64,000 nucleotides of DNA, from positions 3,481-67,480 of the forward strand of contig JAUSCZ010000041.1 of NCBI GenBank assembly GCA_030674475.1, given 5' to 3'. Shown one piece after another: positions 22,304 to 55,340 of this stretch (positions are counted from its first letter, which is position 1; each line of letters opens with the position of its first letter). The notes beneath the pieces were generated by a model. That model was not told where the DNA came from and did no database searches. It saw nothing but the letters and a program-made list of their open reading frames with translations. The translations under genes and the position numbers were made by a program. This DNA comes from Candidatus Omnitrophota bacterium. Lineage in GTDB: Bacteria; Omnitrophota; Gorgyraeia; Gygaellales; UBA12090.

Positions 22304-22379
22304 GTCATTCCCGTAATCTTTTAGCGGGAATCCAAAAATGAGTTTATCTGGATGCCCGACTAAAACATTCGGGCATGAC
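22304..22379. mobile_element. MITE-like element with gtcattcccg ... cgggcatgac terminal inverted repeats (family P2, copy X)
   Basis: gtcattcccgtaatcttttagcgggaatcca...ggatgcccgactaaaacattcgggcatgac. Same ends and internal hairpins as 47243..47345. Confidence 0.65.
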
Positions 22380-22436
22380 AAAATTATCAAGAACTAATTA
22401 CACAATGTACTAGTTCAACTGATATGCCTGGCCTTT

Positions 22437-23228
22437 TTACTTCCGGGCATTTAATATCAGCTCAATCTCACTCTTAAGGCTGTCAATGCTGCGGGCTTTG
22501 GTTTTACGGCCGTTAATATAAATAGTAGGCGTACCCCGGACCTCAACCTTGTTGCCTAAAGATATATCTTTTTGGATATGTTCCTGCCATTGGGCATCTT
22601 TATCTTTGTAATCTTTCTGGAATTTTTTCATATTCAATCCCAGATTCTTAGCCAATGTATTAAATTCCTTCTCATTTAGATTTGAACTATTTTTTAACAA
22701 CCCGTCCAGCATTTCCCAGTATTTACCCTGCTCTCCGGCGGCCAGGGCGGCCTTGGCCGCGGGGATGGCCTGTTGATGAAAAGGCAAGGGATAATTCTTG
22801 ACCACTGCTTTTACCTTATCCGGAAAGGCATTTACCGCCTCTACCACCAAAGGATGAAACCTGGCGCAAAACGGGCATTGGATATCTATAAACTCCACAA
22901 TAGTTACCGGCGCTTCTTTCTTGCCTAAGAGAGGAGAGTTATCAATATTTATTTCATGTATCTTTAGATAATCTTCTTGCTCCCGCTCCTCGCCCGGCGG
23001 TGATTTTAATTTCTTAATGGCCGCCTGCAACTCTTTTCCCTGTTTTTCCATATTCCCGAGGCGCTTTTCAATCTTTTCCTGAACCAGCAGTATTTCTTTC
23101 TGCTGACGGAAAAGTTCTCCGAATAATGGATTTTTTACCTGAAATCCGATAATGCCGATACCGATAAAAACACCGATAAGGATACCGGCAACAACCGCAA
23201 AACCCGCGAATAAGCCTTTTTTATCCAT
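22437..23228 (-). CDS. DsbA-like thioredoxin-fold protein (thiol:disulfide oxidoreductase) with N-terminal TM and coiled-coil
   Basis: 263 aa with a CPFC active site in FIDIQCPFCARFHP and a thioredoxin-fold layout. Confidence 0.7.
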   Translation of the reverse strand: MDKKGLFAGFAVVAGILIGVFIGIGIIGFQVKNPLFGELFRQQKEILLVQEKIEKRLGNMEKQGKELQAAIKKLKSPPGEEREQEDYLKIHEINIDNSPLLGKKEAPVTIVEFIDIQCPFCARFHPLVVEAVNAFPDKVKAVVKNYPLPFHQQAIPAAKAALAAGEQGKYWEMLDGLLKNSSNLNEKEFNTLAKNLGLNMKKFQKDYKDKDAQWQEHIQKDISLGNKVEVRGTPTIYINGRKTKARSIDSLKSEIELILNARK

Positions 23229-23357
23229 CGTTACGCCTCCGATAATTTTGTTACTACTTTTTAGGAGAATTTAAGGTTTCGTATTTAGAATTTTTCTATG
23301 ACTACATCAAAATAGCATAACTGGAGGCTTATGTCAAATAAGGAAAGGCGGGGGGTT

Positions 23358-25625
23358 TTAATTCGGCGAATACCTCTCTTTGCCCTGCTCCACAAACAGC
23401 CCGGTATCCGCGATCAACAGCACTGCCCGGAAGTCCGGGGTAGTTTCTACTCCTCGCTCTTCCTTCAGCCAGCAAAGCCGCAGGAGAAGCGGTAATAATT
23501 GGATCTCTCTTTGCGCGTTAAAGGCGTCCTTCTGGGACATCGCCGCCAGTAAACGCTTAAGCCGGTCGGTTGAAACCTCTATCTTGGCATTAATCATCTG
23601 TTCCATTGCGGCCATTTCCCGGCTTATATCAATCCCCTCCAATTCCGCCTTACTCAACAGCGGCAGGCGCAGGTCCAACCCCTGGAAGCTTCCCATCGGC
23701 CGGGTGAGGTAGTTGATTCGGGTGAAGTCAATACCGCCGGTAGTTAACGGTGAATTACTATTTTGAGATAAGTCTTGAGTTAATGCCGAAGAGACCTCAT
23801 CCGATTTCAAAAGACCTAATTTATTGGCGGCGGCTTTTGATAAATTCTTGAATCCATCAACCAACGGTTTCAGCGCACTTTTAAGTTCTGGATCTGTAAT
23901 CTTCCCCACATCTTTAACTAAATTGCTTATCGCGCTATTTAAAACATCTAAATCTTTATCTTTCTCTATTCTAAGATCGGCATAATGGAAGTAACCATTA
24001 AATATCTCTCTCCATTTCGGATGATCCTTATAGCTACGAGATAATAAAGTAAGCTGATCCTTAATCGTTTTCTTGGTCTCCTCTACCGTCAGCGGCGAAG
24101 AGCCGGTCTCTTTCTCCTTCTCCAAATATTCTTGAGCTTCATTAAAAACATTAATTAGTTTTTTATCATTCGCATAGGTTCTACTCAGGGATTCAATTGT
24201 GTTGTTTAAGGCCTCAACAACCTTTTTTCTTTGCTCCCTATTCAAATCAGAGAAAGCACGCTTCAAATTTATCTTCCAACCTATATACGCGAACTCTACT
24301 CCTTCCCCATTACCTTCTCTCGCTATTTTTTCCAAATCAATAAGAAAACCATGATTAGCTGATGCTATTGCGTTCAATCTTTCTTGGCTTTCTATGATCC
24401 CAGTTGGCTCAGATAAATGGTTATGTATTGAACCGCCCACAAAAGCACCGCTCACGATAAGTATCGCAAGTCCGACAAGCGTAGACTTTTTCATCTTTGT
24501 TAATAGTGGACTTCCTGCCTTAAAACCGCCTTCAATTAAAGGCTTAGAGTTCCCGGTCATATCTGTTCCCCCGCTGACATAGCTCCTGATTACCTGGCCG
24601 GTGGGAGTGGTTATCTGTTCCTTAAGGTTGTATTCACCCTGCTGGAAGGACTTTTTGTATTCGCTAAAGTAGTAGTCCTTGGTCCAGGCCTCTTTTGAAA
24701 TAAGATTATCTAAGTTATGGCTGTCAATCAGGCTGGAGTATTGGCCGGGCTGGCCTCTGAACTTGTCCTTAAACCAGCGGGAAAGGATGAGCGAGAAAAA
24801 GACCTGGCGGAGTTGGGCGTATTTCTTGGAGGTATTGACCTCCTGGGTGAGCTTGGGCAGGATGAGTTCTCTAATTAGCTGGGTAGAGTATTGGTTGAGT
24901 TTCTTCATCCTTTGGTCATTAAAATTATACTGGTGACCTGGTGACATGGTGTCCTGGCGACTTTTAATGTAATCTTCCTCCAGCATCACTTTCAGGTTCG
25001 CCTTGTAGATATAGGATGAGTCTTCGCTTTCTCTGATTATTACCTCTCCCGGCACTATCCAGGGCCGAGTGATGGTGGGGATAGTAATGTTTTCAGTGCC
25101 GAATAATTCCCCAGCCCTCTTATACAGCTTATCCCAGTATTCTTTGCCTTCAGGAGTTTGGGGCGAGGTCCAACCGGCAGTATCTTTCTTTAGCTGTAAG
25201 TCCGCCTCCAGCATTATCTTACCCATATCGGTCTTTTCTAACTCCGGGTCTATAATCTGCTCCGGGGCATCCGGCCTAAGATTTACCCAAAACTTGTCGT
25301 TGGGTAAGGATAGACCTATCAAGAAATAATTGAATAGCTTCTTGGTCTCATTCTTAAGAGCATTCTCCGATTTCTCCGGTGACCTGGTGACCTGGTGACC
25401 TGGTGACTTCTCGAAGTCACCCTGGTCTAATAACAGCTTAAAGTCATTGCTTTTGATATCGTAAGAGATATACCGTAGGTGAGGGGGACGAAAGCTATCC
25501 GTATTCAAGGCCGACATTTGGTTCAGGTATTTGCCGATATTCAGCTCGGCTACTCCCTGAGCAAAGATGGGTTGGGTTAAAATCAGGCTATGGGATAGAA
25601 TTAAGGATATGGCTTTTTTGAACAT
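23358..25625 (-). CDS. Large hypothetical secreted/membrane protein (755 aa)
   Basis: Signal peptide and an internal TM (LVGLAILIVSGAFVGG). No recognisable catalytic motifs. It carries two in-frame copies of the octamer-repeat element. Confidence 0.5.
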   Translation of the reverse strand: MFKKAISLILSHSLILTQPIFAQGVAELNIGKYLNQMSALNTDSFRPPHLRYISYDIKSNDFKLLLDQGDFEKSPGHQVTRSPEKSENALKNETKKLFNYFLIGLSLPNDKFWVNLRPDAPEQIIDPELEKTDMGKIMLEADLQLKKDTAGWTSPQTPEGKEYWDKLYKRAGELFGTENITIPTITRPWIVPGEVIIRESEDSSYIYKANLKVMLEEDYIKSRQDTMSPGHQYNFNDQRMKKLNQYSTQLIRELILPKLTQEVNTSKKYAQLRQVFFSLILSRWFKDKFRGQPGQYSSLIDSHNLDNLISKEAWTKDYYFSEYKKSFQQGEYNLKEQITTPTGQVIRSYVSGGTDMTGNSKPLIEGGFKAGSPLLTKMKKSTLVGLAILIVSGAFVGGSIHNHLSEPTGIIESQERLNAIASANHGFLIDLEKIAREGNGEGVEFAYIGWKINLKRAFSDLNREQRKKVVEALNNTIESLSRTYANDKKLINVFNEAQEYLEKEKETGSSPLTVEETKKTIKDQLTLLSRSYKDHPKWREIFNGYFHYADLRIEKDKDLDVLNSAISNLVKDVGKITDPELKSALKPLVDGFKNLSKAAANKLGLLKSDEVSSALTQDLSQNSNSPLTTGGIDFTRINYLTRPMGSFQGLDLRLPLLSKAELEGIDISREMAAMEQMINAKIEVSTDRLKRLLAAMSQKDAFNAQREIQLLPLLLRLCWLKEERGVETTPDFRAVLLIADTGLFVEQGKERYSPN
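24930..24961. repeat. Degenerate copy of the ggtgacct-octamer element inside the 755-aa CDS (encodes ...SPGHQYNF...)
   Basis: ctggtgacctggtgacatggtgtcctggcgac flanked by attaaaa/ttttaat. Confidence 0.6.
25370..25409. repeat. 40-bp octamer-repeat element inside the 755-aa CDS (encodes SPGHQVTRSP)
   Basis: atttctccggtgacctggtgacctggtgacctggtgactt, followed by the hairpin ggtgacttctcgaagtcacc. Near-identical to 63157..63197 in leuS. Confidence 0.85.
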
Positions 25626-25722
25626 TTTTGTCCTTACTTAAATTTCCCAAATAAAAAACCGGACTTGGTCTTTCCTCGCATAAGGAAAAACCAAATCCGG
25701 CTGGGATATTCCGTGGCGTTTT

Positions 25723-25744
25723 GCCTGCCTGCCGGCAGGCAGGC
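25723..25744. repeat. Perfect 22-bp palindrome gcctgcctgccggcaggcaggc (family P3)
   Basis: Intergenic between the 755-aa gene start and the ZIP gene stop. No U-tract follows, so it is not a classic terminator. Confidence 0.6.
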
Positions 25745-25834
25745 CTACTGGTATTTCAGACAGGCAAAAAATAAATCAGCCAACACAATATTTATTAAAT
25801 ATTTAATAAAGTATACTACATAAACCCAAAATCG

Positions 25835-26569
25835 TCAACTAAATTTCTTTAAAACATACATCAAGACGATCCCAAACAGGAAAAAGGCTAAGGAAAGGGC
25901 GGATTTTCGGGCATCGGTTTCCTTATGAATCTCCGGGACCAGGTCGGCGCTGGAGATATAAATAAAACCGCCGGCGGTTAATCCCAGCAGGATGTGGGAA
26001 AAACCGCCGATTTTATGGGAGAGAAAATACCCCAGGATCGCTCCTCCAAAGGCGCACAGACCGGAGAGAAAATTGTAAAACAGGGCCTTTTGCCGGCTGA
26101 ACCCCCCATACACCAGGACCCCGAAATCTCCTAACTCCTGGGGGATTTCGTGGATAATCACCAGCAAGGTGGTAAACAGTCCCAATCTGACTGAAACCGC
26201 GAAACTCCCGGCAATCACCAGGCCATCAATAAAATTATGCAGGCCGTCGCCGAAAAGGTTCAGATAGGTAAAGGTATGCTGGTGGCAGACCCCGTCGTGG
26301 CAGTGGCGCCAGTAGAGGTATTTCTCCAATAAAAAAAACAAAACGAACCCGCCGATCACAAAGATAAATACGCTTTGCTGACTGCCTTGCTCTATGGCCT
26401 CGGGGATAAGGTGCAGAAAAGCCCCTCCAAACAGGGCCCCCGCGGAAAAAGCTACCAGCAGGAAAAGAATGGCCTTTAGTAATTTCTCCTTAACCGACAG
26501 GGTCAGGGCCCCAACAAGAGAAATCACGCTTACCAACAACGTGCTTAATAATATAAGTAAAAGCCGCAT
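25835..26569 (-). CDS. ZIP-family divalent metal transporter (ZupT-like)
   Basis: 244 aa and polytopic. Carries the ZIP signature HEIPQELGDFGVLV and His-rich segments. Confidence 0.85.
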   Translation of the reverse strand: MRLLLILLSTLLVSVISLVGALTLSVKEKLLKAILFLLVAFSAGALFGGAFLHLIPEAIEQGSQQSVFIFVIGGFVLFFLLEKYLYWRHCHDGVCHQHTFTYLNLFGDGLHNFIDGLVIAGSFAVSVRLGLFTTLLVIIHEIPQELGDFGVLVYGGFSRQKALFYNFLSGLCAFGGAILGYFLSHKIGGFSHILLGLTAGGFIYISSADLVPEIHKETDARKSALSLAFFLFGIVLMYVLKKFS

Positions 26570-26682
26570 TAACCTAAATTCGGCTTTCTGCCTTTATTGG
26601 CCTTTTTAGAACGCCAATTGAGCTTTCCTCTTCTTTTACGTTTACTCATTTCTTTCTTGTCTCCTTTCTAAACGCTAATTTA

Positions 26683-26706
26683 CCTGCCTGCCTGTAGGTA
26701 AGCAGG
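26683..26706. repeat. cctgcctgcc...ggtaagcagg hairpin (family P3) in the divergent intergenic region
   Basis: cctgcctgcctgtaggtaagcagg. Confidence 0.5.
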
Positions 26707-26746
26707 CATGAATAGTGCTCTTTATTATATATTACTCGTTATATTC

Positions 26747-26788
26747 GGTCAATAAGTATTGACAAAGACAGGCTTCTTTCCTATAATA
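26747..26788 (+). promoter_or_regulatory. Consensus sigma-70 promoter (TTGACA-17-TATAAT) with an overlapping 7-2-7 operator palindrome GTCAATA-AG-TATTGAC
   Basis: ttgaca at 26759-26764 and tataat at 26782-26787, with a 17-nt spacer. aggagg RBS at 26798-26803 precedes the ATG at 26812. The palindrome at 26748-26763 overlaps the -35. Confidence 0.6.
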
Positions 26789-26811
26789 AAAATACAAGGA
26801 GGATTTAAAAA

Positions 26812-27117: not shown

Positions 27118-27118
27118 A

Positions 27119-27778: not shown

Positions 27779-27876
27779 AAAGCCATTACTTCAATTGACG
27801 AGAAAATCTATTCCCTGGATAAAAAAACCCAGCATTATTTTAACGGTAAAACAATGCTGGGTGGAAAAATCTAAGC

Positions 27877-28353: not shown

Positions 28354-28522
28354 ATTATTGTCCTCCTCATTAAATTCAAAGGTCAAATACCAAAACACAA
28401 AACATTTATTTTTGAATTTATCATTTAAATTCTGCCGGTAGACAGGAATTTATTTTGTGCTTTGGATTTTGTCGTTTGTCATTGATTGTATTTGTAATAT
28501 ATAGCAAATTCCGGCCTTTTTG

Positions 28523-29830
28523 TCAAGGCAATGTTACTACTTGTTCATATAAGCTCTCAATATCTTTTATCAGCCTTTTTTTGGCGAATCTTTCCCGGAC
28601 GAATTCGCGGCCGGAGGCGGCCATCTTCCTTCTTATCTCTTCATTCCTCAGTAAGAAGTTCAAGGCCCCGGCAAAACTATCCGCGTCGCCAGGCCTCACC
28701 ATTATTCCTCTTTCGCGCGCGCTAAACCCCGTTAGAGGCAGGACGCCAGAGGCGTCCGACGGTTGCCTTCGGCAACCTGCCTCTAACGGGGTAAACCCAA
28801 GCTCATCCTTAGGTCCTTCTAAGCTCTCACCAACTAAATCCTTTACCCCGCCGGCATCGGTAGCCGCGATAACCTTACCTGAAGCCATTGCTTCTATTAA
28901 AGATACCGGCGTGCCTTCGTTGATTGAAGTCAGACAGACAATATCCAAATCCGAGTAAACTTCGGATAAATCCTTTTGCCAGCCGTTAAACTCCACCACC
29001 GAACTTAAATTCAGCTTTTGGGCAAATTCTTCAAGCTCAGCCCTTAATTCTCCATCGCCTATAATCTTAAATCTTAAATCCAGCGCGGGATTATCCCGGA
29101 TAACCTTGGCCGCGCCTTCCAAAAACAAACGATGATTTTTAATAGGCACCAGTCTTCCCACTATGCCGATATTTAAACAACGGTTGGCTTCTTTTCCCGA
29201 TGAAGCGGGATCCCGCATTCCTTGTATCGGGAGTCGGGAAAACGGAAGCCCTAAGAATCTATCTAATTCTAAGCCCAGAGGAATAACCTTAATCTTATCT
29301 GAACCGCTGATTCGTAAAGAAACCAGCTCTTTCTTAACCGCTAAACTTACCGTGATTATCCTTGAGCTAAAACAAGCTAAGAAGCGCTCAATAAAGATAA
29401 ATAATCGCGTTTTAAATCTGCCGAAATAGCCCTCAAAGACATGGCCGTGAAAGGTATGAATAAGCTTTGTTCGCCTCGCGGCCAAGAGATTATAAAATAT
29501 CCCGGCCAGCCTGCCTAATGTTCCGGCCTTGGCGGTATGGGTATGGATAATATCCGGATTTTCCCTCCTTATCAGTTTATATATTTTTAAAAACGCGATT
29601 ACATCATTCAGCGGATTTAATTCCCGTCTAAGCTCAGGGATAATATAAGGGACAACATTCCTGGCCCGGGCGTAATAAAGCATATCTCCTTCATCTTGAG
29701 CGATAGTGCCGCAGACCAAAAGCGAGTCAAATTTATCCTTGTTAAGACCCTCAGTGAGTAAAATCGCGTGAATTGCCGGGCCTCCGATATTAAGCCGGGC
29801 AATGACCCTTACTACCTTTATTTTCTTCAC
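28523..29830 (-). CDS. GT4-family glycosyltransferase carrying an in-frame 69-bp repeat-element insertion
   Basis: 435 aa with the N-terminal GGPAIH and C-terminal EGTPVSLIEAMASGKVIAATDAGG ... VRPGDADSFAGAL GT4 motifs. An extra 23-aa segment PLEAGCRRQPSDASGVLPLTGFS is encoded by P1 copy 2. Confidence 0.8.
   Translation of the reverse strand: MKKIKVVRVIARLNIGGPAIHAILLTEGLNKDKFDSLLVCGTIAQDEGDMLYYARARNVVPYIIPELRRELNPLNDVIAFLKIYKLIRRENPDIIHTHTAKAGTLGRLAGIFYNLLAARRTKLIHTFHGHVFEGYFGRFKTRLFIFIERFLACFSSRIITVSLAVKKELVSLRISGSDKIKVIPLGLELDRFLGLPFSRLPIQGMRDPASSGKEANRCLNIGIVGRLVPIKNHRLFLEGAAKVIRDNPALDLRFKIIGDGELRAELEEFAQKLNLSSVVEFNGWQKDLSEVYSDLDIVCLTSINEGTPVSLIEAMASGKVIAATDAGGVKDLVGESLEGPKDELGFTPLEAGCRRQPSDASGVLPLTGFSARERGIMVRPGDADSFAGALNFLLRNEEIRRKMAASGREFVRERFAKKRLIKDIESLYEQVVTLP
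28727..28791. repeat. 65-bp structured palindromic element, family P1, copy 2, inserted in-frame inside the GT4 CDS
   Basis: ccccgttagaggcagg...cctgcctctaacgggg are perfect 16-bp arms. Inner hairpins ggacgccagaggcgtcc and ggttgccttcggcaacc are in inverted order relative to copy 1. Flanked by taaa/taaa. 65 + 4 = 69 bp = 23 codons. Confidence 0.85.
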
Positions 29831-33044: not shown

Positions 33045-33141
33045 CTTCTAAGTCTCTGGGGACAAAATAAAACCCCGCGCCTTTTCATATTCATGTTTTT
33101 CAAACTAAAATACATAGAATACATAAAAGGCACGGGGTTAA

Positions 33142-33208
33142 CCCCGTTAGAGGCAGGTTGCCGAAGGCAACCGTCGGATGCCTCTGGCGTCCTGCCTCCA
33201 ACTGGGTG
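33142..33208. repeat. Structured palindromic element, family P1, copy 3 (right arm degraded)
   Basis: ccccgttagaggcaggttgccgaaggcaaccgtcggatgcctctggcgtcctgcctccaactgggtg. One hairpin reads ggatgcc/ggcgtcc, a G-U-compatible pairing. Confidence 0.75.
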
Positions 33209-33229
33209 AACACGAATAATTTTTAAAGC

Positions 33230-42637: not shown

Positions 42638-43853
42638 TAAGAAATCTCTTTTTTCTCAATAAGCGGTGATACTTCAAAGCAAAGCGGTGAGACTCATCCC
42701 GGATACATTGAAGCAAGCGCAGAGCCGGGGAATTATTCTTCAGCCTTATCGGCCTGGGAGTAAAAAGGGTATATATCTCTTCTTCTCTTTTAGCTAAGCT
42801 TACAATGGGAATAATTAATCCCAAATCCTCTAATTCCTTTTTAGCCGCGCAAAGCTGGCCCCGGCCTCCGTCTACCAGGATTAAATCCGGCAAAGGCAAA
42901 TTCTCCTCCTTAAGCCGCGAGTACCGCCTATGCACGGCCTCAGCCATCATCTTATAATCATCGCTCTGCTTAACTGTCTTAATCCGGAAGCGGCGGTAAT
43001 TATCCTTATCAGCTAAACCATTATAAAAAGATACCATTGAAGCGGTGGCCTGTCTACCTAAAATATTAGAAACATCAAAAGCCTCTATTCTGCGCGGTAT
43101 AACCGGGAGCCTCAAAACTTCCCTTAACTCGCTAAGCGCTGACTCCGTGTTATACAAAGATGGCTTGAAGGTATTTAAAGCAATCATCTTATCCCGTAAC
43201 AGTGCCGCTTCTTCAAACTTCCGCTCTTTGGCTTTCTGCCGCATTTCCCGGGATAACTCCTTAGCCAACTCCTCGTTCTTGCCTTCCAGGATCAGGCTGA
43301 TTTGCTTTATGGTTTTGGCGTAATCGCTCTTACTGATTTTCCCGATACAAGGAGCAGGTGAAAGCTTTATACGATAATACATACAGGCTTTTTTGGGAAG
43401 CACCGGACAGGAACGGTAGGGAAAATCGCGGCGGATAATCTTTAACGCTTCTCTCAATAAGCCGGCGCTGATATAGGGGCCGAAATATTGAGCGCCGTCG
43501 TCCTCCCGTTTACGGGTAACATAAATCGCGGGAAATTCCTCATTGGTGATCTTGACTAAAGGAAAACTCTTATCATCCCGAAGCGAGACGTTATATTTCG
43601 GCTTATGCTCTTTGATAAGGCTTGCCTCTAATAAAAGCGCCATACTTTCGCTGGCTGTGGTCCTATATTCAATATCAACCACATTCATCATAAGGCGCAG
43701 GGTCTTTGCCGAAAGCCCGCGCGCCAGATAACTGCTCAGGCGTTTTCGAAGCGAAAGCGCTTTACCGATATAAATAATCCTGCAGGATGAGTCCTTCATT
43801 AAATACACACCCGGAGAATCCGGAAATAGGCTTATTTTTTCCTTAATATCCAT
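42618..43853 (-). CDS. uvrC: Excinuclease ABC subunit C-like protein (GIY-YIG + UvrC core, lacks C-terminal HhH2)
   Basis: True start MDIKEKISLFPDSPGVYLMKD...IIYIGKA (GIY-YIG) at 43851-43853. The ORF track extends it 45 codons into the duplicated junction repeat. The LILVDGGRGQL motif of the UvrC endonuclease domain is present. Confidence 0.75.
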   Translation of the reverse strand: MDIKEKISLFPDSPGVYLMKDSSCRIIYIGKALSLRKRLSSYLARGLSAKTLRLMMNVVDIEYRTTASESMALLLEASLIKEHKPKYNVSLRDDKSFPLVKITNEEFPAIYVTRKREDDGAQYFGPYISAGLLREALKIIRRDFPYRSCPVLPKKACMYYRIKLSPAPCIGKISKSDYAKTIKQISLILEGKNEELAKELSREMRQKAKERKFEEAALLRDKMIALNTFKPSLYNTESALSELREVLRLPVIPRRIEAFDVSNILGRQATASMVSFYNGLADKDNYRRFRIKTVKQSDDYKMMAEAVHRRYSRLKEENLPLPDLILVDGGRGQLCAAKKELEDLGLIIPIVSLAKREEEIYTLFTPRPIRLKNNSPALRLLQCIRDESHRFALKYHRLLRKKRFLNEEKGG

Positions 43854-43886
43854 TGCATGACCTTTTTGATTTATGATTTCGGGGGA
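43806..43886. repeat. Left junction repeat of the inserted island (about 85% identical to 51021..51092); contains the genuine uvrC start
   Basis: cacacccggagaatccggaaataggcttattttttccttaatatccattgcatgacctttttgatttatgatttcg aligned against cacgccggctgaatccggagaaaggcttattttttccttaatatccattgaatgacctttttgatttcg. Confidence 0.8.
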
Positions 43887-43983
43887 CACGATAGTTATTG
43901 AGCTTTGCATTTGTAATGGGAATGACAGAGGCTCCGGCTGCGTCGGAGATAAAGGAAAGATCGCTCCTATTAGTTTCGCAAAG

Positions 43984-44102
43984 CTCAATAATTATTGATT
44001 TTATTATTCGATCCCGAATTTATTTTCTTCAAAGGTATTCCTAATATGTTTTCCCATGCCTGGAAAGTAACCATCAAATTTCAAGACTTAACTCTTTTCT
44101 CC
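43984..44102. repeat. Island modular repeat, copy A (right two-thirds of the ~170-bp unit)
   Basis: aattattgattttattattcgatcccgaatttattttcttcaaa...gcctggaaagtaaccatcaaatttcaagacttaac. Shared with 48340..48472. The ORF-track entry 43995..44321 lies on it and is spurious. Confidence 0.8.
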
Positions 44103-44221
44103 CTATTATTATATATTTCGTTTTTTGTGTCTAACGATAAAGTTAAGCCGCCATTTTCCGCAGAGCAAAACGACGCGGGAAATGGCGGCTTCAACGCTTT
44201 GTTAGATGGTAATTTATTGTT

Positions 44222-45282: not shown

Positions 45283-45440
45283 TTCAGCCTAACGAAATGG
45301 CTAACCCGCCGGGGCATCCACCATCGCAAAAAACTTTAGGGGTCAAACCCGGACATTAGACATTATCTCATCTTTTCCTTAAAAATTACACAATAGTTAT
45401 TGATTTTATTATTCAATTCCGAATTTCTTTTCTTCAAAGC
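45283..45440. repeat. Island modular repeat, copy B (left two-thirds of the unit)
   Basis: ...ctttaggggtcaaacccggacattagacattatctcatcttttccttaaaaattacacaatagttattgattttattattcaattccgaatttcttttcttcaaa. The upstream part (tttcagcctaacgaaatggctaacccgccggggcat) recurs at 44713..44790. Confidence 0.8.
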
Positions 45441-45573
45441 TAAAAACTCTCGCGCTTTATCACTACACCATTGCCTTAACCCACCCGAATAATCATTAAT
45501 TGTCTTCTATTCATCATCCCGCGTATTGTTTTTCAGACCAACCATACATTGCTCAAATGTTTTGATTATGAAT

Positions 45574-46638: not shown

Positions 46639-46890
46639 ATGGCCCACTTTCCAATTAATATACAGATTAAGAATCTACGAAAAAAGCTGGGTTTAACTCA
46701 AGTCGATTTCGCGAAAAGAGCAGGGGTAGGTTTGCGTTTCTTAAGAGAGCTGGAAGAAGGCAAGCCTACGGTGCGGTTAGATAAGCTTAATCAAGTTTTG
46801 GATTTCTTGGGTGTTCATCTGGAAATAGCGCGCAATGAAAATATAAAATCTGAATGGACAGATAACAACAAACTTGAAGCAGAATTATGA
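46639..46890 (+). CDS. hipB: HipB-like XRE-family HTH antitoxin/regulator
   Basis: 83 aa with an HTH (LRKKLGLTQVDFAKRAGVGLRFLRELEEGK). The stop overlaps the start of the next gene (ATGA). Confidence 0.7.
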   Translation: MAHFPINIQIKNLRKKLGLTQVDFAKRAGVGLRFLRELEEGKPTVRLDKLNQVLDFLGVHLEIARNENIKSEWTDNNKLEAEL

Positions 46891-47210
46891 AAGAACTTAG
46901 AAAAGGGCAGGTTTTTTTCAATAAGGACTTGGCCGGGGACATTAGCGAAACGAAAGACGGCTATCTTTTTGAATATGATAAAGATTTTTTAAAAAAAAAT
47001 ATACCTGTTTCTATGTCGTTACCTCCCAGAGAAGAGCCTTATGAATCTAAAGAATTATTTCCTTTTTTTAAAGGCCTTTTGCCTGAAGGCTGGTATTTAG
47101 ATATTGTTACCGCTACCCAAAAGGTTGATAGGGAAGACTTGTTTGGTATCCTTCTTTGCACTACGAGCGGTGATACCATTGGCGCGGTAACGGTTCGCAA
47201 GATAGAATGA
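46887..47210 (+). CDS. HipS-like protein (HipA N-terminal subdomain homolog)
   Basis: 107 aa. The YLFEYDKDF...PVSMSLPP... pattern matches the HipA N-terminal (Couple_hipA) region, here as a separate ORF in a HipB-HipS-HipT gene order. Confidence 0.6.
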   Translation: MKELRKGQVFFNKDLAGDISETKDGYLFEYDKDFLKKNIPVSMSLPPREEPYESKELFPFFKGLLPEGWYLDIVTATQKVDREDLFGILLCTTSGDTIGAVTVRKIE

Positions 47211-47242
47211 ACATCATTGCTGTCCAGGTTAGCCATTACAGC

Positions 47243-47345
47243 GTCATTCCCGCAATCTTTTAGCGGGAATCCACGACGAGAGTATTTTCTGGATACCCGC
47301 TTTTCCCGCATAGCGGGATCCCGTAAAGCGGGACGCGGGTATGAC
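47243..47345. mobile_element. MITE-like element (family P2, copy Y) inserted between hipS-like and hipT-like genes
   Basis: gtcattcccgcaatcttttagcgggaatcca...ggatacccgc[ttttcccgcatagcgggatcccgtaaagcgggac]gcgggtatgac. Same termini as 22304..22379, with a nested extra hairpin module. Confidence 0.65.
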
Positions 47346-47407
47346 AAATTCAATATCTCAAAATTCCGTTCCAGTCGACAAGTAATAACTAATTTGGACA
47401 CGAGTGA

Positions 47408-48274
47408 ATGAACATAAAACTTATTAAAGAGATGTTTAATACTTCTAAACTGCCGATAATAGATTTCGGCTTGGAAGATGTTTCTCAAAAAGCGCAGAAA
47501 TCGGCGGGGAAGTTATCCATTTCCGGGGTTCAGCCGAAATTATCCATGAAGCTTGATAAGAAAAATAATGCGTTAATTTCTGTTGCTGAAGGCGGAGAAT
47601 ATATTTTAAAACCCCAAACCGTGGCTTTCCCGAATATTCCTGAGAATGAACAGTGTTGTATGGACATAGCGGCGGAGTTTAAGATAGCTGTTCCTCCTCA
47701 TTGTCTCTTGCCTTTAAAAGATAAAAGCTGGGCGTATATTGTGAAAAGATTTGACAGGGAATCAGGCGTGAAAATCCATCAGGAAGAATTCTTTCAAATA
47801 TTAGAATCAGGAAATAAATACCAAGGTTCCGTTGAACAAATTGGGCGTAAATTAAAAGAAATATCTACCGCGCCCGGATATGACGTGCAATTATTTTTTG
47901 AGAGGGTTGTCTTTAATTTTATTATTGGAAACGGAGACGCCCATTTAAAGAACTATTCAATCGCGTATAAGGATAAAGAAACTATCCGCTTAACGCCGGC
48001 CTATGATATGGTATGTTCAAAATTGGTGATTCCGGATGAAGAAGATTCCGCCTTATCTATCAACGCCAAAAAGAATGAACTGAAAAGAGATGATTTTGAT
48101 AAGTTGGCGGAGTATTTAAATATACCGATAAGAATTCGCTATGAAAAATTCGAAAAGAGCTTGATTTTAATGGAAACAATAATTAAAAATTCAAAAATTA
48201 AGCAAGAGATTCAGGAGCGATTTATTAACATCATTAAAGAGCGCTTATCACGTATGAACATAGCGGCAGAATAA
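47408..48274 (+). CDS. HipT/HipA-like serine/threonine kinase toxin (kinase core)
   Basis: 288 aa with the ISGVQPKLSM P-loop-like motif and the catalytic GNGDAHLKN (D-x-H-x-K-N) motif of HipA-family kinases. Confidence 0.7.
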   Translation: MNIKLIKEMFNTSKLPIIDFGLEDVSQKAQKSAGKLSISGVQPKLSMKLDKKNNALISVAEGGEYILKPQTVAFPNIPENEQCCMDIAAEFKIAVPPHCLLPLKDKSWAYIVKRFDRESGVKIHQEEFFQILESGNKYQGSVEQIGRKLKEISTAPGYDVQLFFERVVFNFIIGNGDAHLKNYSIAYKDKETIRLTPAYDMVCSKLVIPDEEDSALSINAKKNELKRDDFDKLAEYLNIPIRIRYEKFEKSLILMETIIKNSKIKQEIQERFINIIKERLSRMNIAAE

Positions 48275-48283
48275 AGAAAAGTT

Positions 48284-48472
48284 TAAAAAGCTTTAAGGGC
48301 CACCCGGACATTAGATACCATCTAATCTTTTCCTTAAAAATTAGAGACAATACTTAATTATTGATTTTATTATTCGATCCCAAATTTTTTCTTCAAAAAT
48401 ATCCCTTATTTGCTTTCCCCTGCCTGGAAAGTAACCATCAAGTTTCAAGACTTAACCTTTTTCTTTTCTCCG
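48284..48472. repeat. Island modular repeat, copy C (full-length ~170-190-bp unit)
   Basis: ctttaagggccacccggacattagataccatctaatcttttccttaaaaattagagacaatacttaattattgattttattattcgatcccaaatttttt...gcctggaaagtaaccatcaagtttcaagacttaacc. The ORF-track entry 48361..48591 is spurious. Confidence 0.8.
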
Positions 48473-48833
48473 GCATAGATGCTTTTAGCATCTCAAACAG
48501 CCTGTCTTTGATATTCAGCGATTCCCGCTCCGCTTTTTGGATATTCTTATTTTTTACCATTTCCCGGTCTTTCTTTCAACAATTTCTCTAGGTGATAACT
48601 TTGCATCTTGTTAGGCTTCGATTTACTGTTGAACCACCTATTAACTGTAACGCGGAAAATCTGCGATAGGTTTCTTACTTTCTAAGATATTTATGATCAA
48701 AATAAAAAGGATAAATTTTATCCCTTAACAAGATGGTTCCAATTGCTATGAGAGCTATACCACAATATGTTAAGAATGTTCCCATGTCTTCCTTTTCTCC
48801 GTTTCGAACTCTCCGCGCGTGTTCTCTTTACGC

Positions 48834-50722: not shown

Positions 50723-51020
50723 GATTCGCTCCTTTTCCAGTATTACGTGTCATTAATTATATAATAGATGGCTAATTTCACCTAAAATTGCAAAAAATGA
50801 GTTTATAGTCTACTTTTTTAAGTATATAACAAATATACATCAAAAATTTAAAATGTCAACATTTTTTGTGAAATATTCTCAAAAAATAAGTTTATTTATA
50901 TATGCGCGGCTAGATAGCCGTCCTAATTTCTATGTGAATTCAAGAGGTAGGAGGTTTCAGGGTTATTCCGCGAGAGGCTCGGCATGCCACACCACCGAGT
51001 TTTGCAACAGTCCCAAGATG

Positions 51021-51092
51021 CACGCCGGCTGAATCCGGAGAAAGGCTTATTTTTTCCTTAATATCCATTGAATGACCTTTTTGATTTCGGCT
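51021..51092. repeat. Right junction repeat of the inserted island; contains the genuine murJ 3' end plus a degenerate uvrC-start pseudo-ORF
   Basis: Partner of 43806..43886. In this copy the uvrC-like frame reads MDIKEKISLSPDSAGVHLGTV... and diverges after 16 aa. Confidence 0.75.
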
Positions 51093-52588
51093 AAATCCAG
51101 GATAAGCGCGCCTAAGATAAAAATTAGCAGGCCGGAGAGCGCCGCGGCGCTTACTCTCACTAAAGGCGGGGCGCTAATTAGACACCGGCCATAAACATAA
51201 AAACTGGCCCCGGAGGCTATCAAAGAAAAAAAGAGAATCTTGGCGAAAACCTGGCTTAAATACCGGCCGTTAAGCGGGCCGATCTTTTTTCTTAAAGAAT
51301 GAAAAAGGATAAAAAAATTAATGCCTCCGGATAAGCTGGTAGCTAAAGCCAAGCCCTTTAATTTTAAAGGATACATCAGGATAAGATTAAAAACGATATT
51401 GACTAAAAGCGAGGCCGCGGTTATCTTAAGCGGGGTTTTGGTATCCTTAAGAGAAAAGAATCCCGAAACCAGCACCTTGTTGGCGGCATAAAAACTCAAG
51501 GATAAGGCGTAAAACAAAAGCGCTCCGGAGGTAATCTCGGTGGAATAGGCGTCAAATCTCCCCCCTTCAAACAAGGCCGCGACTATCGGCTTAGCCAAAA
51601 CGGCTATTAGGGCGGAAACCGGAAGCATAATCAAAAAAACAGCAATTAAGGAAAAATTCAGGGTCTTCTTAAAATTATCCAGATTATCCTCCAGCGCCTG
51701 ATGAGATAAAGACGGTAAGGCCGCCTGGGCAATGGCTATCCCGAATATGCCTAAGGGAAATTGAAAAATCCGGTTGGCAAAATATAAGGCGGAAATCGCT
51801 CCCTGGCCTACGATATGAGCCAGAGAACCGAGTATCGTATCCACAAAGAGATTAAGCTGATAAATACAAGAACTGAATATCCGGGGGAGAATCAGTTTTC
51901 CGATTTGCCTGATCCCGGGATGCCGCAACTCCAGTGCCGGACGGTAGCGGAAGCCTTTTTTATAAAGCATCGGTATCTGCACCGCTAACTGTCCTACCCC
52001 CCCGGCCAAGACTCCCAAAGCCAGGCCTAGTGTTCCCTCTCCGTAAGCAACAGCAAAAACGATTATAGAAATATTCAAAAGGCAGGGGGCCAAGGCTGAG
52101 ATAGTGAAAGACTTAAGAGAATTCAACACCCCCATACAATAGGCGCTCAAGGCAATCAATAGTAAATAAGGATAGATAATTCTGGTCAGCCGGACTGTTT
52201 CCTGGAACTTTAACGCGTCAGAGCTAAAACCGGGGGCAATCAGGCGCACAATCCAGGGAGAAAACACTACCCCCAGGATAGTAAGCGCCGCCAGGATGAC
52301 CAGGAGGATATTCAATAAGCAATTAGCCAAATGCCAGAATTCCTCTTTTGATTTTTTGGCCGCGTATTCGCTGAATACCGGGACAAAGGCCGCGTTCACC
52401 GCTCCCTCGGCCACCATATCCCGCAAGAGATTAGGAATCCTGAAGGCCACCACAAAGGCCTGAGAATACATACCCGTGCCGAAGAACCGGGCAATCACCA
52501 CATCCCGGATAAAACCGAGTATCCGCGAGCACAAAGTAAAAAAACCGATTAAGGAAGCCGATCGGGCAATTTCTTTATTGGTTGACAT
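51047..52588 (-). CDS. murJ: Lipid II flippase MurJ
   Basis: 513 aa with 14 predicted TM helices, the N-terminal MurJ pattern (FFTLCSRILGFIRDVVIARFFG) and MOP-superfamily features. Confidence 0.85.
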   Translation of the reverse strand: MSTNKEIARSASLIGFFTLCSRILGFIRDVVIARFFGTGMYSQAFVVAFRIPNLLRDMVAEGAVNAAFVPVFSEYAAKKSKEEFWHLANCLLNILLVILAALTILGVVFSPWIVRLIAPGFSSDALKFQETVRLTRIIYPYLLLIALSAYCMGVLNSLKSFTISALAPCLLNISIIVFAVAYGEGTLGLALGVLAGGVGQLAVQIPMLYKKGFRYRPALELRHPGIRQIGKLILPRIFSSCIYQLNLFVDTILGSLAHIVGQGAISALYFANRIFQFPLGIFGIAIAQAALPSLSHQALEDNLDNFKKTLNFSLIAVFLIMLPVSALIAVLAKPIVAALFEGGRFDAYSTEITSGALLFYALSLSFYAANKVLVSGFFSLKDTKTPLKITAASLLVNIVFNLILMYPLKLKGLALATSLSGGINFFILFHSLRKKIGPLNGRYLSQVFAKILFFSLIASGASFYVYGRCLISAPPLVRVSAAALSGLLIFILGALILDLAEIKKVIQWILRKK

Positions 52589-52632
52589 TTTAGGTTAAAT
52601 ATGCTATAAAAATAACCAATATGTAATTATAA

Positions 52633-52700
52633 AGGTTAAGACCAAGGTCAAGGTTAAACTTGTCTCAACCTTGACCTCAACCTCAACCTTTTCATTTAAC
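52633..52700. repeat. Imperfect inverted repeat built from ggtt/aacc hexamers in the murJ-rpsT divergent promoter region
   Basis: aggttaagaccaaggtcaaggttaaac...tctcaaccttgacctcaacctcaacct. Confidence 0.5.
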
Positions 52701-52726
52701 AATTTACTGTAACACAGGAGGAATAA

Positions 52727-53011
52727 ATGGCTCCACGTAGACGCCAATCGCTAAAAGCGCAGCGCAAGGACAAAAAAAGACACACCCGCAATCACCAGGT
52801 AAAAACAGCACTCAAGAAAACCCTCAAGAAATTAGAAGTTTCTTTCACCGAGAAAAAAACAGCAGAGGCCGCGCAAACGCTTAAAGAGGCAATTTCTAAG
52901 CTGGCTAAGGCCGCCAAAAAAGGCGTCCTGCACAAAAACACCGCCCAGCGCAAAATCTCCCGTCTAAGCAGAAGATTAGTTAAAATAGTTAAATTAGGCC
53001 AGGCCGCATAA
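52727..53011 (+). CDS. rpsT: 30S ribosomal protein S20
   Basis: 94 aa, basic, with the KKGVLHKNTAQRKISRLSRRL C-terminal motif typical of S20. RBS aggagg lies upstream. Confidence 0.85.
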   Translation: MAPRRRQSLKAQRKDKKRHTRNHQVKTALKKTLKKLEVSFTEKKTAEAAQTLKEAISKLAKAAKKGVLHKNTAQRKISRLSRRLVKIVKLGQAA

Positions 53012-53689
53012 TTTCACTACCAGGACCTCTAAGGCAAACTCGGGTTTAACTTTGCCGGTTTTTAGGTTAAGGTCGGCTTCCATCAAGAGGCCGACCTTTT
53101 CTTTTTTCTCTTTTAACTTTAAGCTGTCTGTGGCGGATGAGAAAGAATCGCTTTTAACAAACCGATAACGCAAAGCTCCCAAAATCATCTCCGGCTTTTC
53201 TCCGTTTCTAAACAAATCTACCAGTAGATTTAAAGCAAAGGATGCGTCTTTTCTCTCAATAGCCCTGGCTAAACCAAAGGCGTCAATCTTATCTTTAGCC
53301 TTAAAAGGAATGACTTTGCCGTATCTGGAGATTTTATTAAAAAACGCGCTTTCCGCTTTAGGGATAAGGGCGGCCTCTAAAATCAGGATTAAGTCTTCAG
53401 GCAGTTTTTCTATTTGAGCCGCGAAATAATCCTTGAGCTCGTCTTTAAGTTTAAAGACATCTTTAATTACCATTATTCTTTGGGGGGATTCCAGGGGTAG
53501 GCGGCTGAGGGCTTCTTTAAACAGGGGGAGGGTTAGTTCTTTAGCGTAAAAGGATTCACAATTAAAATCCTCAAAGCCTTTTTTAAGTAACTCACTTTTT
53601 AAAGAATTTATTTTTTCCTGCTTGGCGGGTTCATCTTCTCCGATAAAAAAATAAAGCATCTTAACGTAGGCAAAATTACCAATTCTCAA
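52994..53689 (-). CDS. holA: DNA polymerase III delta subunit-like protein (short HolA)
   Basis: 231 aa. N-terminal YFFIGEDE and the overall helical pattern resemble HolA. The conserved lptE-holA adjacency supports the call. It is shorter than typical HolA. Confidence 0.5.
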   Translation of the reverse strand: MRIGNFAYVKMLYFFIGEDEPAKQEKINSLKSELLKKGFEDFNCESFYAKELTLPLFKEALSRLPLESPQRIMVIKDVFKLKDELKDYFAAQIEKLPEDLILILEAALIPKAESAFFNKISRYGKVIPFKAKDKIDAFGLARAIERKDASFALNLLVDLFRNGEKPEMILGALRYRFVKSDSFSSATDSLKLKEKKEKVGLLMEADLNLKTGKVKPEFALEVLVVKLCGLA

Positions 53690-54233
53690 CTAAGCGCTCC
53701 AGCACCCGCCGGGCCAAATCGGCTATGGCCAGGTCAAGAGCGGCCTTCTCGGTCTTAGCCTGGGTGCCGGTGATAAAATAAGTCGCGTCTCCCACAAAAT
53801 TAGGTTCCTCCCAGAGAGGGGTTTCCTCCCCCTTTTTTAAGAGGACCAGGCGCATTATCAGGCTAACGCGGTATTCGGCAACATCCTCCTGGTTATTCTC
53901 ATAACGCAGGGCATCCCGCTGGTAGTTAATCAAATCGCCCTTGAGAACTATATCCGCGTCTTCTTTCTTGGCCACGCGCATTCCTCCATCAAACATGAAA
54001 CGGTTGATAACCGCGGCGCGGATGTCATTTTCTAACAGCGGATGATAGGTCCGGAATCTCTGCCCCAGTCCGGTGGCATCCTCGGAAAGCAGATCAACCT
54101 TATTAGCAAATGGCTCAACAAAGATAGTTTTATACGGTCCCCGGTAAATCGTGCGGCTGGTATAGCCGCAGCCGAACAAAGCAGAAAGCAGAAAGCAGAA
54201 AGCAGAAAGCGAAAAAAGATTGCGTTTTTTCAT
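53676..54233 (-). CDS. lptE: LPS-assembly lipoprotein LptE-like
   Basis: 185 aa with lipobox LFGC. Its size and position upstream of holA match the leuS-lptE-holA arrangement of E. coli. Confidence 0.55.
   Translation of the reverse strand: MKKRNLFSLSAFCFLLSALFGCGYTSRTIYRGPYKTIFVEPFANKVDLLSEDATGLGQRFRTYHPLLENDIRAAVINRFMFDGGMRVAKKEDADIVLKGDLINYQRDALRYENNQEDVAEYRVSLIMRLVLLKKGEETPLWEEPNFVGDATYFITGTQAKTEKAALDLAIADLARRVLERLVENW
54181..54208. repeat. Tandem heptamer (gcagaaa)x4 encoding the LptE signal-peptide hydrophobic core (FSLSAFCFLLSA)
   Basis: gcagaaagcagaaagcagaaagcagaaagc. Reads in-frame on the minus strand. Confidence 0.85.
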
Positions 54234-55219
54234 TGTGTCTCCAATTCTTTAAGCGCCTCTCTGGCCGGGGTGGCGCTGGCGCAATAAGGGCATTTTTCTA
54301 TTATTTCCTGATAATAAACCTTGGCCGCCGCGTATTTTTTCTGCTTCTTGTAAAAATCAGCTATTTTTAAATTGCCCGCGGCCTCTTTTTCCTTTAAGCT
54401 GTCAATCTGTTTACCCGCGTCTTTGGCCAGATTCTCCTGGGGGCGCGATTTAACAAACTCTTCAAATTCTTCCCTGGCCTTCTTGGTAAGCTCCTGGTCA
54501 TAGTCTGCCTTGGGAGCTATCCTGGTGGCGCAATCAGCCGACTGAAATCTTGCCTGGGAGGCCCATTGGCTTTCCGGATAGGTAGTCCCCACCTTATCAA
54601 ATTCCTCCCGGGCCTCCTGGAAGCGGCTGGAATCCTTTAAGGTCATTCCCAGAAGATACTGGGCATAGGCGGCTTGCTTTCCATACGCTGAATTGTCTAC
54701 CACTTTGCGAAATATCTCAATGGCCGGATTTTCTACCGGAAGCTCCACTCCCATGGCCTTTCTTTTTTCACCCGACATAAAAACCTGGGCTATTTTTAAT
54801 TCCTTCTCAATTATCTGATCCATCCGGCCGGAAAACGGATATTTATCAATCACCTTCTGATAAGCCAGATAGGCCTCGTAGAGCTTCTTGTTGTCAGCCT
54901 CAAGGCTCAAGCCGATATAAAACTGGGCGTCAGGCGCCTCAAAGGCCTTAGGGTAATACTTAATCAGCTTGCGGCATTCCTCAATCGTCTCTTTGTATTT
55001 GGCCTGCTGGTAGAGTTCCTGGATGAATTTCAACTGCTCTTTGGGATTAGGTTTGACGCTGGCCTTGGGGTTCGCCCAGCGGCTGGATTCGGGGGTCCAG
55101 ATCCAAAAAGGATAAGCGGATTGAATACTGCAGGATAAAAAAAGAGTGAAAACCGCTAATATCAAGCCAATTCTTCTCATAGCGATTTTTACTCTATCAT
55201 AGAAAAGAGATTTTGTCAA
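54230..55219 (-). CDS. bamD: Outer-membrane protein assembly factor BamD-like TPR lipoprotein
   Basis: 329 aa with lipobox LFLSCS, TPR-like repeats and a YfiO-like organisation. Confidence 0.6.
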   Translation of the reverse strand: MTKSLFYDRVKIAMRRIGLILAVFTLFLSCSIQSAYPFWIWTPESSRWANPKASVKPNPKEQLKFIQELYQQAKYKETIEECRKLIKYYPKAFEAPDAQFYIGLSLEADNKKLYEAYLAYQKVIDKYPFSGRMDQIIEKELKIAQVFMSGEKRKAMGVELPVENPAIEIFRKVVDNSAYGKQAAYAQYLLGMTLKDSSRFQEAREEFDKVGTTYPESQWASQARFQSADCATRIAPKADYDQELTKKAREEFEEFVKSRPQENLAKDAGKQIDSLKEKEAAGNLKIADFYKKQKKYAAAKVYYQEIIEKCPYCASATPAREALKELETQ

Positions 55220-55275
55220 ACCAAAGAGAAGCGCTATTGTAATGCGTCAGCGAAAGGGGGCAATTTATAAAATGT

Positions 55276-55340
55276 GTCATTGCGAGGCGCGAAGCGAAGC
55301 AATCCCGTCGGAAAGATTGCTTCGCTTCGCTCGCAATGAC
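55276..55340. repeat. 65-bp near-perfect palindrome (26-bp stem) with gtcatt...aatgac termini
   Basis: gtcattgcgaggcgcgaagcgaagcaatc-ccgtcggaaa-gattgcttcgcttcgctcgcaatgac. The left flank tgtgtcatt is shared with P2 copy X. The overlapping ORF-track entry 55242..55424 is spurious. Confidence 0.75.

Follow-up and report, generated by a model that had tools for sequence, protein, structure and literature searches.

Three short palindromic sequences lie between genes in a 64,000-nucleotide stretch from a Candidatus Omnitrophota bacterium (contig JAUSCZ010000041.1 of assembly GCA_030674475.1; this whole stretch is called the window below), and they raise the question of what kind of element they are and whether they are one kind at all. 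X (22304-22379), Y (47243-47345) and Z (55276-55340) were picked out in an earlier reading of the letters alone (the sequence-only reading), which took them to be one family of miniature inverted-repeat transposable elements (MITEs) with gtcatt...aatgac terminal inverted repeats (TIRs), Z being a possible minimal member and no target-site duplication (TSD) being visible. All three palindromes are present at these positions, and X and Y are indeed related, modular and MITE-like mobile elements. Nevertheless, the picture that we consider probable differs from a single family: X and Y would be non-autonomous MITEs of two families, whose shared core is a gene-less 'head-out' pair (GTCAT...ATGAC) of hairpins of the type recently named Ssn-related motif (SRM), and Z would be a naked pair built from another subfamily of units.

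The outer shells of X and Y

The element boundaries first proposed were too narrow. Multi-copy alignments extend X to 22272-22412 and Y to 47215-47406, and a consensus of the TIRs of each family could be built from 21 X-type and 7 Y-type copies (Table 1). At least eight Y-type copies were found in the Omnitrophota metagenome-assembled genome (MAG) JASEHM01, their similarity to Y running well past GTCAT/ATGAC. Perfect 9-bp direct repeats, AATGAACAT, border the window copy on both sides, contrary to the statement that a TSD was lacking, and in JASEHM01 other target sequences are duplicated by the same rule, perfectly in three of the retrieved loci (L129, L150 and L221) and at 8/9 positions in a fourth (L240). 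The empty site was found as well. As the sequence-only reading had it, Y splits hipS from hipT: these genes overlap by 4 nt (ATGA) in six contigs that each encode a 95%-identical HipT, and the three of them that were aligned to the window (L256, L259 and L261) read ...AAGATAGAATGAACAGAAAAC... at this point, the window being made of the empty-site sequence, Y and a second copy of the 9-mer (alignment A5). Since perfect 9-bp repeats, the same duplication rule in JASEHM01 and an empty site coincide, Y is an insertion, namely a 192-bp MITE inserted exactly at the hipS/hipT stop/start overlap with duplication of 9 bp.

Y has no coding capacity, the sole open reading frame (ORF) that crosses it being a spurious one of 64 aa. 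The hipS stop codon survives in the left repeat and the hipT start codon in the right one, and both ORFs are therefore preserved. What has changed is that the coupled ATGA overlap is replaced by a 197-nt structured spacer; a search in and around Y showed no terminator-like site (hairpin followed by a T-run), and no inward promoter was detected in the spacer. This insertion offers a clean natural case in which a MITE has uncoupled the toxin kinase hipT from the antitoxin-like hipS with both frames intact. In its 18-bp TIRs, CA...TG ends, 9-bp TSD, length of 192 bp and lack of an ORF, the Y shell is similar to MITEs with 9-bp duplications derived from insertion sequences (ISs) of the IS4/IS5/IS1 types, a likeness that extends to its multiple copies in a related MAG and its demonstrated empty site. 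However, the interior of Y is an SRM hairpin pair with no remnants of IS ends.

X has a different shell. The 21 X-type copies found in another Omnitrophota MAG, JAZDOX01, have ~30 nt in common on each side of the pair and end in TIRs TAGTGCATTGTAAAATTAGTT. A TA is invariant at both ends of X, the sequence outside it differs from copy to copy and adjacent elements have one TA between them in common, a pattern consistent with TA duplication as in IS630/Tc1/Correia-type elements. This shell is also found around a different GTCAT pair (L129, 3249-3391) and around an unrelated interior (L159). X is missing from the closest relative (L273, in which a neighbouring protein is 94% identical and the adjacent D3 repeat is retained) and from the distant relatives L267 and L268, which have only a 115-bp spacer with the fur promoter. 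Its presence is therefore polymorphic, with an exact empty site not recoverable from these relatives, whose spacers have diverged. X is thus a 141-bp MITE flanked by TA and of another family than Y, and the idea of one family for both fails on their two outer shells, which differ both in their TIRs and in the target duplicated (TA for X, 9 bp for Y).

Correia elements (Correia repeat enclosed elements, CREE) are grouped with the TA-duplicating, IS630/Tc1-like MITEs and have TIRs beginning TATAGTGGATTAA..., a TA duplication and a length of ~100-155 bp. They are not known outside Neisseria, nor with a pair of Neisseria Transformation Sequences (NTS, see below) as core, and no partner transposase is known for either Correia elements or X-type MITEs. 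The X shell is likewise ~140 bp long, TA-flanked and non-coding, and it begins with TAGTGcATTg.aAA.TTA., which partly resembles the Correia TIR TATAGTGGATTAAATTTAAA. X is nonetheless no strict Correia member, since its host belongs to the Omnitrophota.

Table 1. Positions in the window of elements X, Y and Z, of their parts and of the hip genes around Y
Feature	Position	Strand	Remarks
X, full MITE, 141 bp including flanking TA (22272-22273, 22411-22412)	22272..22412	.	Alignment with 7/21 JAZDOX01 copies; missing from L273
X left TIR, TTGCTCTGTGAAATTAATT (family consensus GTGCATTGTAAAATTAGTT)	22274..22292	+	
X right TIR, reverse complement GTACATTGTGTAATTAGTT	22392..22410	-	
X-L unit, GTC + 8-bp stem ATTCCCGT/GCGGGAAT + loop + CCA	22304..22334	+	NTS/SRM-like hairpin
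X-R unit, inverted copy (GTCATGCCCGAATGTTTTAGTCGGGCATCCA on minus strand)	22349..22379	-	Stem with compensated T.A -> G.C relative to X-L
Y, full MITE, 192 bp	47215..47406	.	Alignment A3 with JASEHM01 copies; empty-site alignment A5
Y left TIR, CATTGCTGTCCAGGTTAG, 18 bp	47215..47232	+	
Y right TIR, reverse complement CACTCGTGTCCAAATTAG, 18 bp	47389..47406	-	
Left 9-bp TSD copy, AATGAACAT	47206..47214	+	Holds hipS stop TGA 47208-47210
Right 9-bp TSD copy, AATGAACAT	47407..47415	+	Holds hipT start ATG 47408-47410
Y-L unit	47243..47273	+	With preceding C (47242-47274) exact match to published SRM pattern
Y-R unit, stem ATACCCGC/GCGGGTAT, enlarged loop	47290..47345	-	
Loop expansion, 30 nt, two tandem 15-nt mini-hairpins TCCCGCataGCGGGA, TCCCGtaaaGCGGGA	47304..47333	.	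Gap in six JASEHM01 relatives (A3)
Z, naked head-out pair, other unit subfamily	55276..55340	.	Z-L 55276-55305 (+), spacer 55306-55314, Z-R 55315-55340 (-)
hipB	46639-46890		
hipS (Couple_hipA domain), upstream of Y	46887..47210	+	
hipT (HipA_C kinase domain), downstream of Y	47408..48274	+	

The genes on either side of X are a DsbA-like one (22437-23228, minus) and fur (21545-21976, minus), and two other palindromic repeat families adjoin the element. A family of 82-nt three-way palindromes, in which an outer stem CCCCGTTAGAG.../...CTCTAACGGGG surrounds two inner hairpins, has members at 22083-22164, 28715-28796 and 33130-33211; the copy adjoining X is found at the same site in L273, has no counterpart in L267/L268 and resembles a sequence in JAZDOX01 (L196). 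Short hairpins GCCTGCCTGCCGGyAGGCAGG are present at 22167-22194, 25716-25743 and 26679-26706, and a motif resembling them is the interior of a third MITE with X-type TIRs in JAZDOX01 (L159, from 2194). The sole part of the dsbA-fur spacer common to the relatives L267, L268, L271 and L273 is the fur promoter region (21990-22060, minus) with its palindromic AATTGAAAATGATTTTCAATT box. Such an arrangement calls to mind the Neisseria intergenic mosaic elements (NIMEs), in which dRS3 flanks the repeat units: in both, short repeats are clustered between genes as a mosaic, with ATTCCC..GGGAAT hairpins among them, D3, D14 and X standing together here at 22083-22412. Unlike X and Y, NIMEs are not known as discrete transposed units bounded by TIRs and TSDs.

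The hipB-hipS-hipT proteins (46639-48274; L256-L266) are 90-96% identical in many Omnitrophota contigs despite different neighbouring genes, and the hipBST module therefore appears mobile between genomes. In the window, it shares a low-GC (34-39%) island between uvrC and murJ with an RloB/AAA_21 pair. A boundary module (..CTTATTTTTTCCTTAA.. and AATTATTGATTTTATTATTCGATCCCGAATTT..) that is present four times, at 43790-44110, 45300-45460, 48260-48480 and 51000-51110, delimits the segments of this island, and the island resembles tandemly inserted cassettes.

The hairpin unit and its head-out pairs

Within their different shells, X and Y have a core in common, and its building block is a hairpin. 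Each arm of X, Y and Z consists of GTC, an 8-bp stem starting with AT, a loop, the complementary stem ending with AT, and then C; the GTCAT start and the C directly 3' of the palindrome are present in all six units (X-L, X-R, Y-L, Y-R, Z-L and Z-R). The units of X and Y are ~31 nt long with a stem ATnCCCGn. The resemblance between X and Y noted earlier holds at both ends: their left units, GTCATTCCCGyAATCTTTTAGCGGGAATCCA, are identical at 30/31 positions (no such match in 100 shuffles) and the right terminus, GGATrCCCG...CGGGyATGAC, is common to both, as is part of the spacer. The extra nested module seen in Y, and with it the idea of a modular interior, is borne out by the 30 nt at 47304-47333, which are a gap in all six JASEHM01 relatives. 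The mini-hairpins of this expansion reuse the CCCGC/GCGGG stem and may have arisen by local duplication of it; similar loop expansions are present in other genomes. Folded as single strands, the three palindromes are far more stable than shuffled sequences (z = -6.7 for X, -5.9 for Y and -8.8 for Z).

Scanning viral contigs with the pattern GTCATNCCCG-N(8-14)-CGGGNATCCA gave at least 120 loci; of 101 distinct units among the matches listed, 96 are paired at the two free stem positions, where independence predicts 51 and 45, and each position shows three types of pair. Since these positions covary, the hairpin is under constraint. When one genome per species was scanned with the more specific pattern GTCATTCCCGYAATCNNNNAGCGGGAATCC, near-identical units were found, among the matches listed, in unrelated contexts in at least nine phyla. 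The taxa in that list are Omnitrophota (several MAGs), Nitrospirota/Thermodesulfovibrionia, Deltaproteobacteria-type (Desulfobacterota-like) MAGs, Binatia, Elusimicrobiota, Scalindua (Planctomycetota), Margulisiibacteriota, Ratteibacteria, Cytophagia and Thiotrichaceae. The genome from which the window comes is not among the matches listed, of at least 120 loci.

A full-text search with GTCATTCCCG led to a study of a Neisseria nuclease (Chenal et al., Nat Commun 2025, PMC11893778), of which the sections considered here describe a closely similar hairpin. The NTS, CGTCATTCCCGCGMAVGCGGGAATCYRG, contains the older dRS3 repeat and has been generalized to a degenerate motif, the SRM, written HGTCWYN(0-2)YYVSBRHN(0-5)WNVSBRGN(0-2)RNCYNB (PMC11893778). 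SsnA, a 94-aa single-domain GIY-YIG protein, binds this hairpin only as single-stranded DNA (ssDNA) and cuts a few nt upstream, 5' of the GTC; the GTC 5' of the palindrome governs cutting, the C just 3' of it governs binding, and the loop may be altered, deleted or lengthened (PMC11893778). According to the same sections, copies of the motif often flank ssnA genes, which is summarized as 'NTS-ssnA-NTS, identical to IS' (PMC11893778).

The window units share with the NTS/SRM the GTC, the palindrome ATTCCCGC..GCGGGAAT and the C that follows. The left units X-L and Y-L carry the NTS stem, ATTCCCGy/GCGGGAAT, and X-R and Y-R carry compensated variants of it (ATGCCCG/CGGGCAT and ATACCCGC/GCGGGTAT, respectively). 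Units of both kinds are orientation-specific, mostly intergenic and multicopy, and both bracket ssn-like genes. They differ in the loop, which has 4 nt in the NTS but 9-11 nt here and 34 nt in Y-R, in the setting, since the units here are mainly head-out pairs and those of X and Y lie inside TIR/TSD-bounded MITEs, and in the host, an uncultivated Omnitrophota in whose window no ssn gene was found. The published SRM pattern is matched by Y-L together with its neighbouring bases (one match in the window, 0.18 expected), X-L fails at the last base and the remaining units have longer loops. Judged by their sequence, the window units are probably the same kind of motif as the Neisseria NTS/SRM, and a nuclease of the Ssn type would be expected to bind or cut them.

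In 804 kb of genome loci there are 426 units, and neighbours no more than 150 nt apart are head-out in 122 cases, divergent in 17 and tandem in 10, with a modal spacer of 18-20 nt. This dominance indicates that the pairs in X, Y and Z represent a preferred architecture. The gtcatt...aatgac inverted termini of the sequence-only reading are thus a real and recurrent arrangement (122:17:10), but they are not the ends of the transposed units here.

An independent test came from 20 loci picked solely because their proteins resemble a GIY-YIG alignment. In 15 of them units are found no more than 400 nt from the gene, and in 12 they are found on both sides of it. The most compact form (L283-L288) consists of GTCATTCCCGCGAAGGCGGGAATCCAG, 15-40 nt, an ATG with a ~90-aa GIY-YIG ORF ending in TGA, and then CTGGATTCCCGC..GCGGGAATGAC. 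This cassette is a head-out pair with a gene in its spacer, and X and Y share its CTGGAT junction. Long-loop units of the X/Y subfamily also stand on both sides of a 96-aa GIY-YIG gene (Pfam PF01541, E = 2e-18) in a Scalindua MAG (L142). NCBIfam gave nothing informative on the GIY-YIG ORFs. Because the geometry of the X, Y and Z pairs equals that of the units bracketing ssn-like genes, the inverted pair seems to be an SRM-ssn-SRM cassette that lacks the gene. A gene-carrying counterpart with matching termini, for which the sequence-only reading suggested a search, is thus found, but this form encodes a ~90-aa GIY-YIG (Ssn-like) nuclease and no classical transposase.

One further GIY-YIG gene, of 78 aa (L233, 600-1350, in the Omnitrophota MAG JAZDOX01), lies in a partly duplicated segment beside a tRNA 3' end with repeated ...CTTCGGATGGTAAACCATCGGGC... 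modules; it was considered as a clean SRM bracket and rejected, the locus being a tRNA-adjacent duplicated segment instead.

The same core is also found in other shells, in Binatia (CCAATGAACC...), in the Deltaproteobacteria MAG MGQA01 (TTATTAAGGGTCTC...) and in JBHHXN01 (TA + GTGTCCATCCGTAA...), and with neither conserved flanks nor duplication in CAYJWM01 and JACKFJ01. As one core occurs in differing shells or in none, what is conserved is the pair, and each lineage has shells of its own.

Palindrome Z, the acting enzymes and competing explanations

Z is a head-out pair of a unit GTCATTGCGAG..GCAATC, which belongs to a separate and widespread subfamily, GTCATTGCGAG...CTCGCAATGAC; a literature search with GTCATTGCGAG returned nothing relevant. 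Among the retrieved loci there are 15 Z-like pairs with variable inner hairpins, from several phyla and with no common shell. Z shares with X and Y only the GTCATT head and the AATC tail, and it is not the minimal form of their element that the sequence-only reading thought possible. It is located between an S8 protease gene, just downstream of its stop codon, and a bamD-like gene. In relatives with 93% and 87% identical BamD, comEC is directly upstream of bamD (with a spacer of 114 bp in the closer one, L275), and the S8 protease (1542 aa; 55374-60002, with 60101-61474 and 54230-55219) plus Z amount to ~4.8 kb of extra DNA splitting this spacer. The protease gene is a strain-specific insertion of ~4.8 kb, and ~40 nt thus separate Z, which splits the comEC-bamD spacer together with it, from the edge of a strain-variable cassette. 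The exact empty site of Z is not recoverable from the relatives compared, Z being inside the 4.8-kb indel.

A Z-type pair, GTCATTGCGGGG...CCCGCAATGAC, is also found just upstream of hipB in relatives with the empty Y site (L256/L257, 1615-1702).

Which enzymes might act on these elements? No single-domain GIY-YIG gene was detected in the 64-kb window by a motif regular expression, by tblastn with YhbQ-like sequences or by a local GIY-YIG hidden Markov model run on all window ORFs of at least 45 aa. Pfam searches of essentially all window ORFs of at least 120 aa returned housekeeping and defence genes only, with no transposase, RAYT (REP-associated tyrosine transposase, see below) or single-domain GIY-YIG protein, and no elements were seen in the 2.7 kb past the window. 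Searches starting from the shells were similarly unproductive: long-range TIR pairs are absent from the 277 loci, viral-contig scans for X/Y-type TIRs gave chance matches inside coding regions only and a metagenome scan gave one further MITE copy. As no nuclease or transposase gene was found in the window or 2.7 kb beyond, the enzymes acting in this organism can only be inferred. The outer shells of X and Y would be moved by a DDE-type transposase supplied in trans, and an Ssn-type nuclease encoded elsewhere in the genome would bind or cut the inner hairpins as ssDNA, in which form they might be exposed during replication, transformation or cruciform extrusion.

Several observations weigh against this picture of two MITE families with a shared SRM core. 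It gives no account of why the same core should sit in two unrelated shells. Only one of the six window units fits the SRM pattern strictly, and the loops are longer than the 4 nt of the NTS. For X, which has no exact empty site, a TA duplication is inseparable from a TIR that itself ends in TA. Z, a naked pair with no outer shell, has no demonstrated mobility. Each of the three is present only once in the window, which, like the adjoining 2.7 kb, holds no single-domain GIY-YIG, RAYT or transposase gene, and no autonomous IS with X- or Y-type TIRs was found in what was a limited search (277 loci, two viral-contig scans and one metagenome scan).

A more daring extension, which we put forward tentatively and regard as unlikely although well worth stating, is that the head-out pair of GTC-hairpin-C units is itself the minimal mobile or homing unit of a selfish element based on a GIY-YIG (Ssn) nuclease, a third class of hairpin-recognizing ssDNA element beside IS200/IS605 and RAYT/REPIN. 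If this were true, SRM-ssn-SRM would be the gene-bearing form and the cores of X, Y and Z would be non-autonomous derivatives or empty homing sites. With its units facing outward, the pair would have one strand cut by Ssn at either side, which might lead to excision, conversion or core swapping. Pairs would in addition hitch-hike inside DDE-type MITEs, and this might explain both the spread of near-identical 31-nt units to the at least nine phyla among the matches listed and the multiplication of NTS/dRS3-type repeats.

MITEs and NTS/SRM hairpins are each already known. Ssn nucleases and their hairpins were described only in 2025 (PMC11893778), and a later preprint used NTS repeats solely as a benchmark. 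In a word search of PMC11893778 neither MITEs nor Correia elements nor non-autonomous forms came up, and head-out pairs are not described in the sections of that paper considered here. Set against those sections, the novelty lies in a combination: head-out SRM pairs without a gene form the conserved core of TIR/TSD-bounded MITEs of two transposition types, the host belongs to the Omnitrophota, and near-identical units are spread over many phyla. How such hairpins multiply and spread bears on the older puzzle of dRS3 in Neisseria, and hitch-hiking in MITEs and/or an Ssn-driven cassette offers a testable route for their dissemination.

The single MITE family of the sequence-only reading, with gtcatt...aatgac as TIRs, Z as its minimal member and no target duplication, can draw on the recurrence of the head-out GTCAT...ATGAC pair, on the pairs in CAYJWM01 and JACKFJ01, which have unrelated flanks and no visible duplication, and on the existence of gene-bearing versions. 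We nevertheless hold it to be improbable, because conservation within the X and Y families continues ~30-60 nt past GTCAT/ATGAC to separate TIRs, because the duplicated 9 bp of Y abut these outer TIRs and because Z has only its head and tail bases in common with X and Y. The empty site of Y refutes it, as the segment missing in relatives is 47215-47415 and not 47243-47345.

Repetitive extragenic palindromic sequences (REPs) and their doublets (REPINs), mobilized by RAYT, a Y1 HUH transposase of the IS200 type, offer the same architecture, with inverted pairs of short hairpins that are mostly intergenic, multicopy and free of duplications when naked. The inverted pair of hairpin repeats is reportedly the replicating unit of the REPIN/RAYT system, and in both systems the hairpins also stand on either side of a single-copy gene. 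However, RAYT-associated REPs are said to have a GT[AG]G head (GTAG or GTGG), whereas the head here is GTCAT, and the bracketed gene encodes a GIY-YIG nuclease instead of a Y1 HUH transposase. A tblastn search with RAYT/IS200 queries did find one RAYT-like gene among the loci (L230), but it is not flanked by units, in contrast to 15/20 GIY-YIG loci, and no Y1 gene was found in the window. An explanation of X, Y and Z as REPINs is accordingly quite improbable in our view.

Least credible of all is that these are selected cis-regulatory RNA or DNA structures (terminators, attenuators or mRNA stabilizers) and not mobile DNA, for although X, Y and Z are all intergenic and strongly structured, Z is just past the S8 protease stop codon and Y is within an operon where its structure could tune hipT translation, Y shows no terminator-like site, Rfam has no match anywhere in the window, near-identical units stand in unrelated contexts in many phyla, and insertion polymorphism and a TSD have been demonstrated. 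A regulatory side-effect of the elements is possible.

Other repeats in the window

Tandem 8-nt repeats CCTGGTGA occur at 24921-24971, 25367-25417 and 63155-63213, inside two unrelated ORFs, one (23358-25625) with no Pfam match and the other encoding leucyl-tRNA synthetase (61878-63965).

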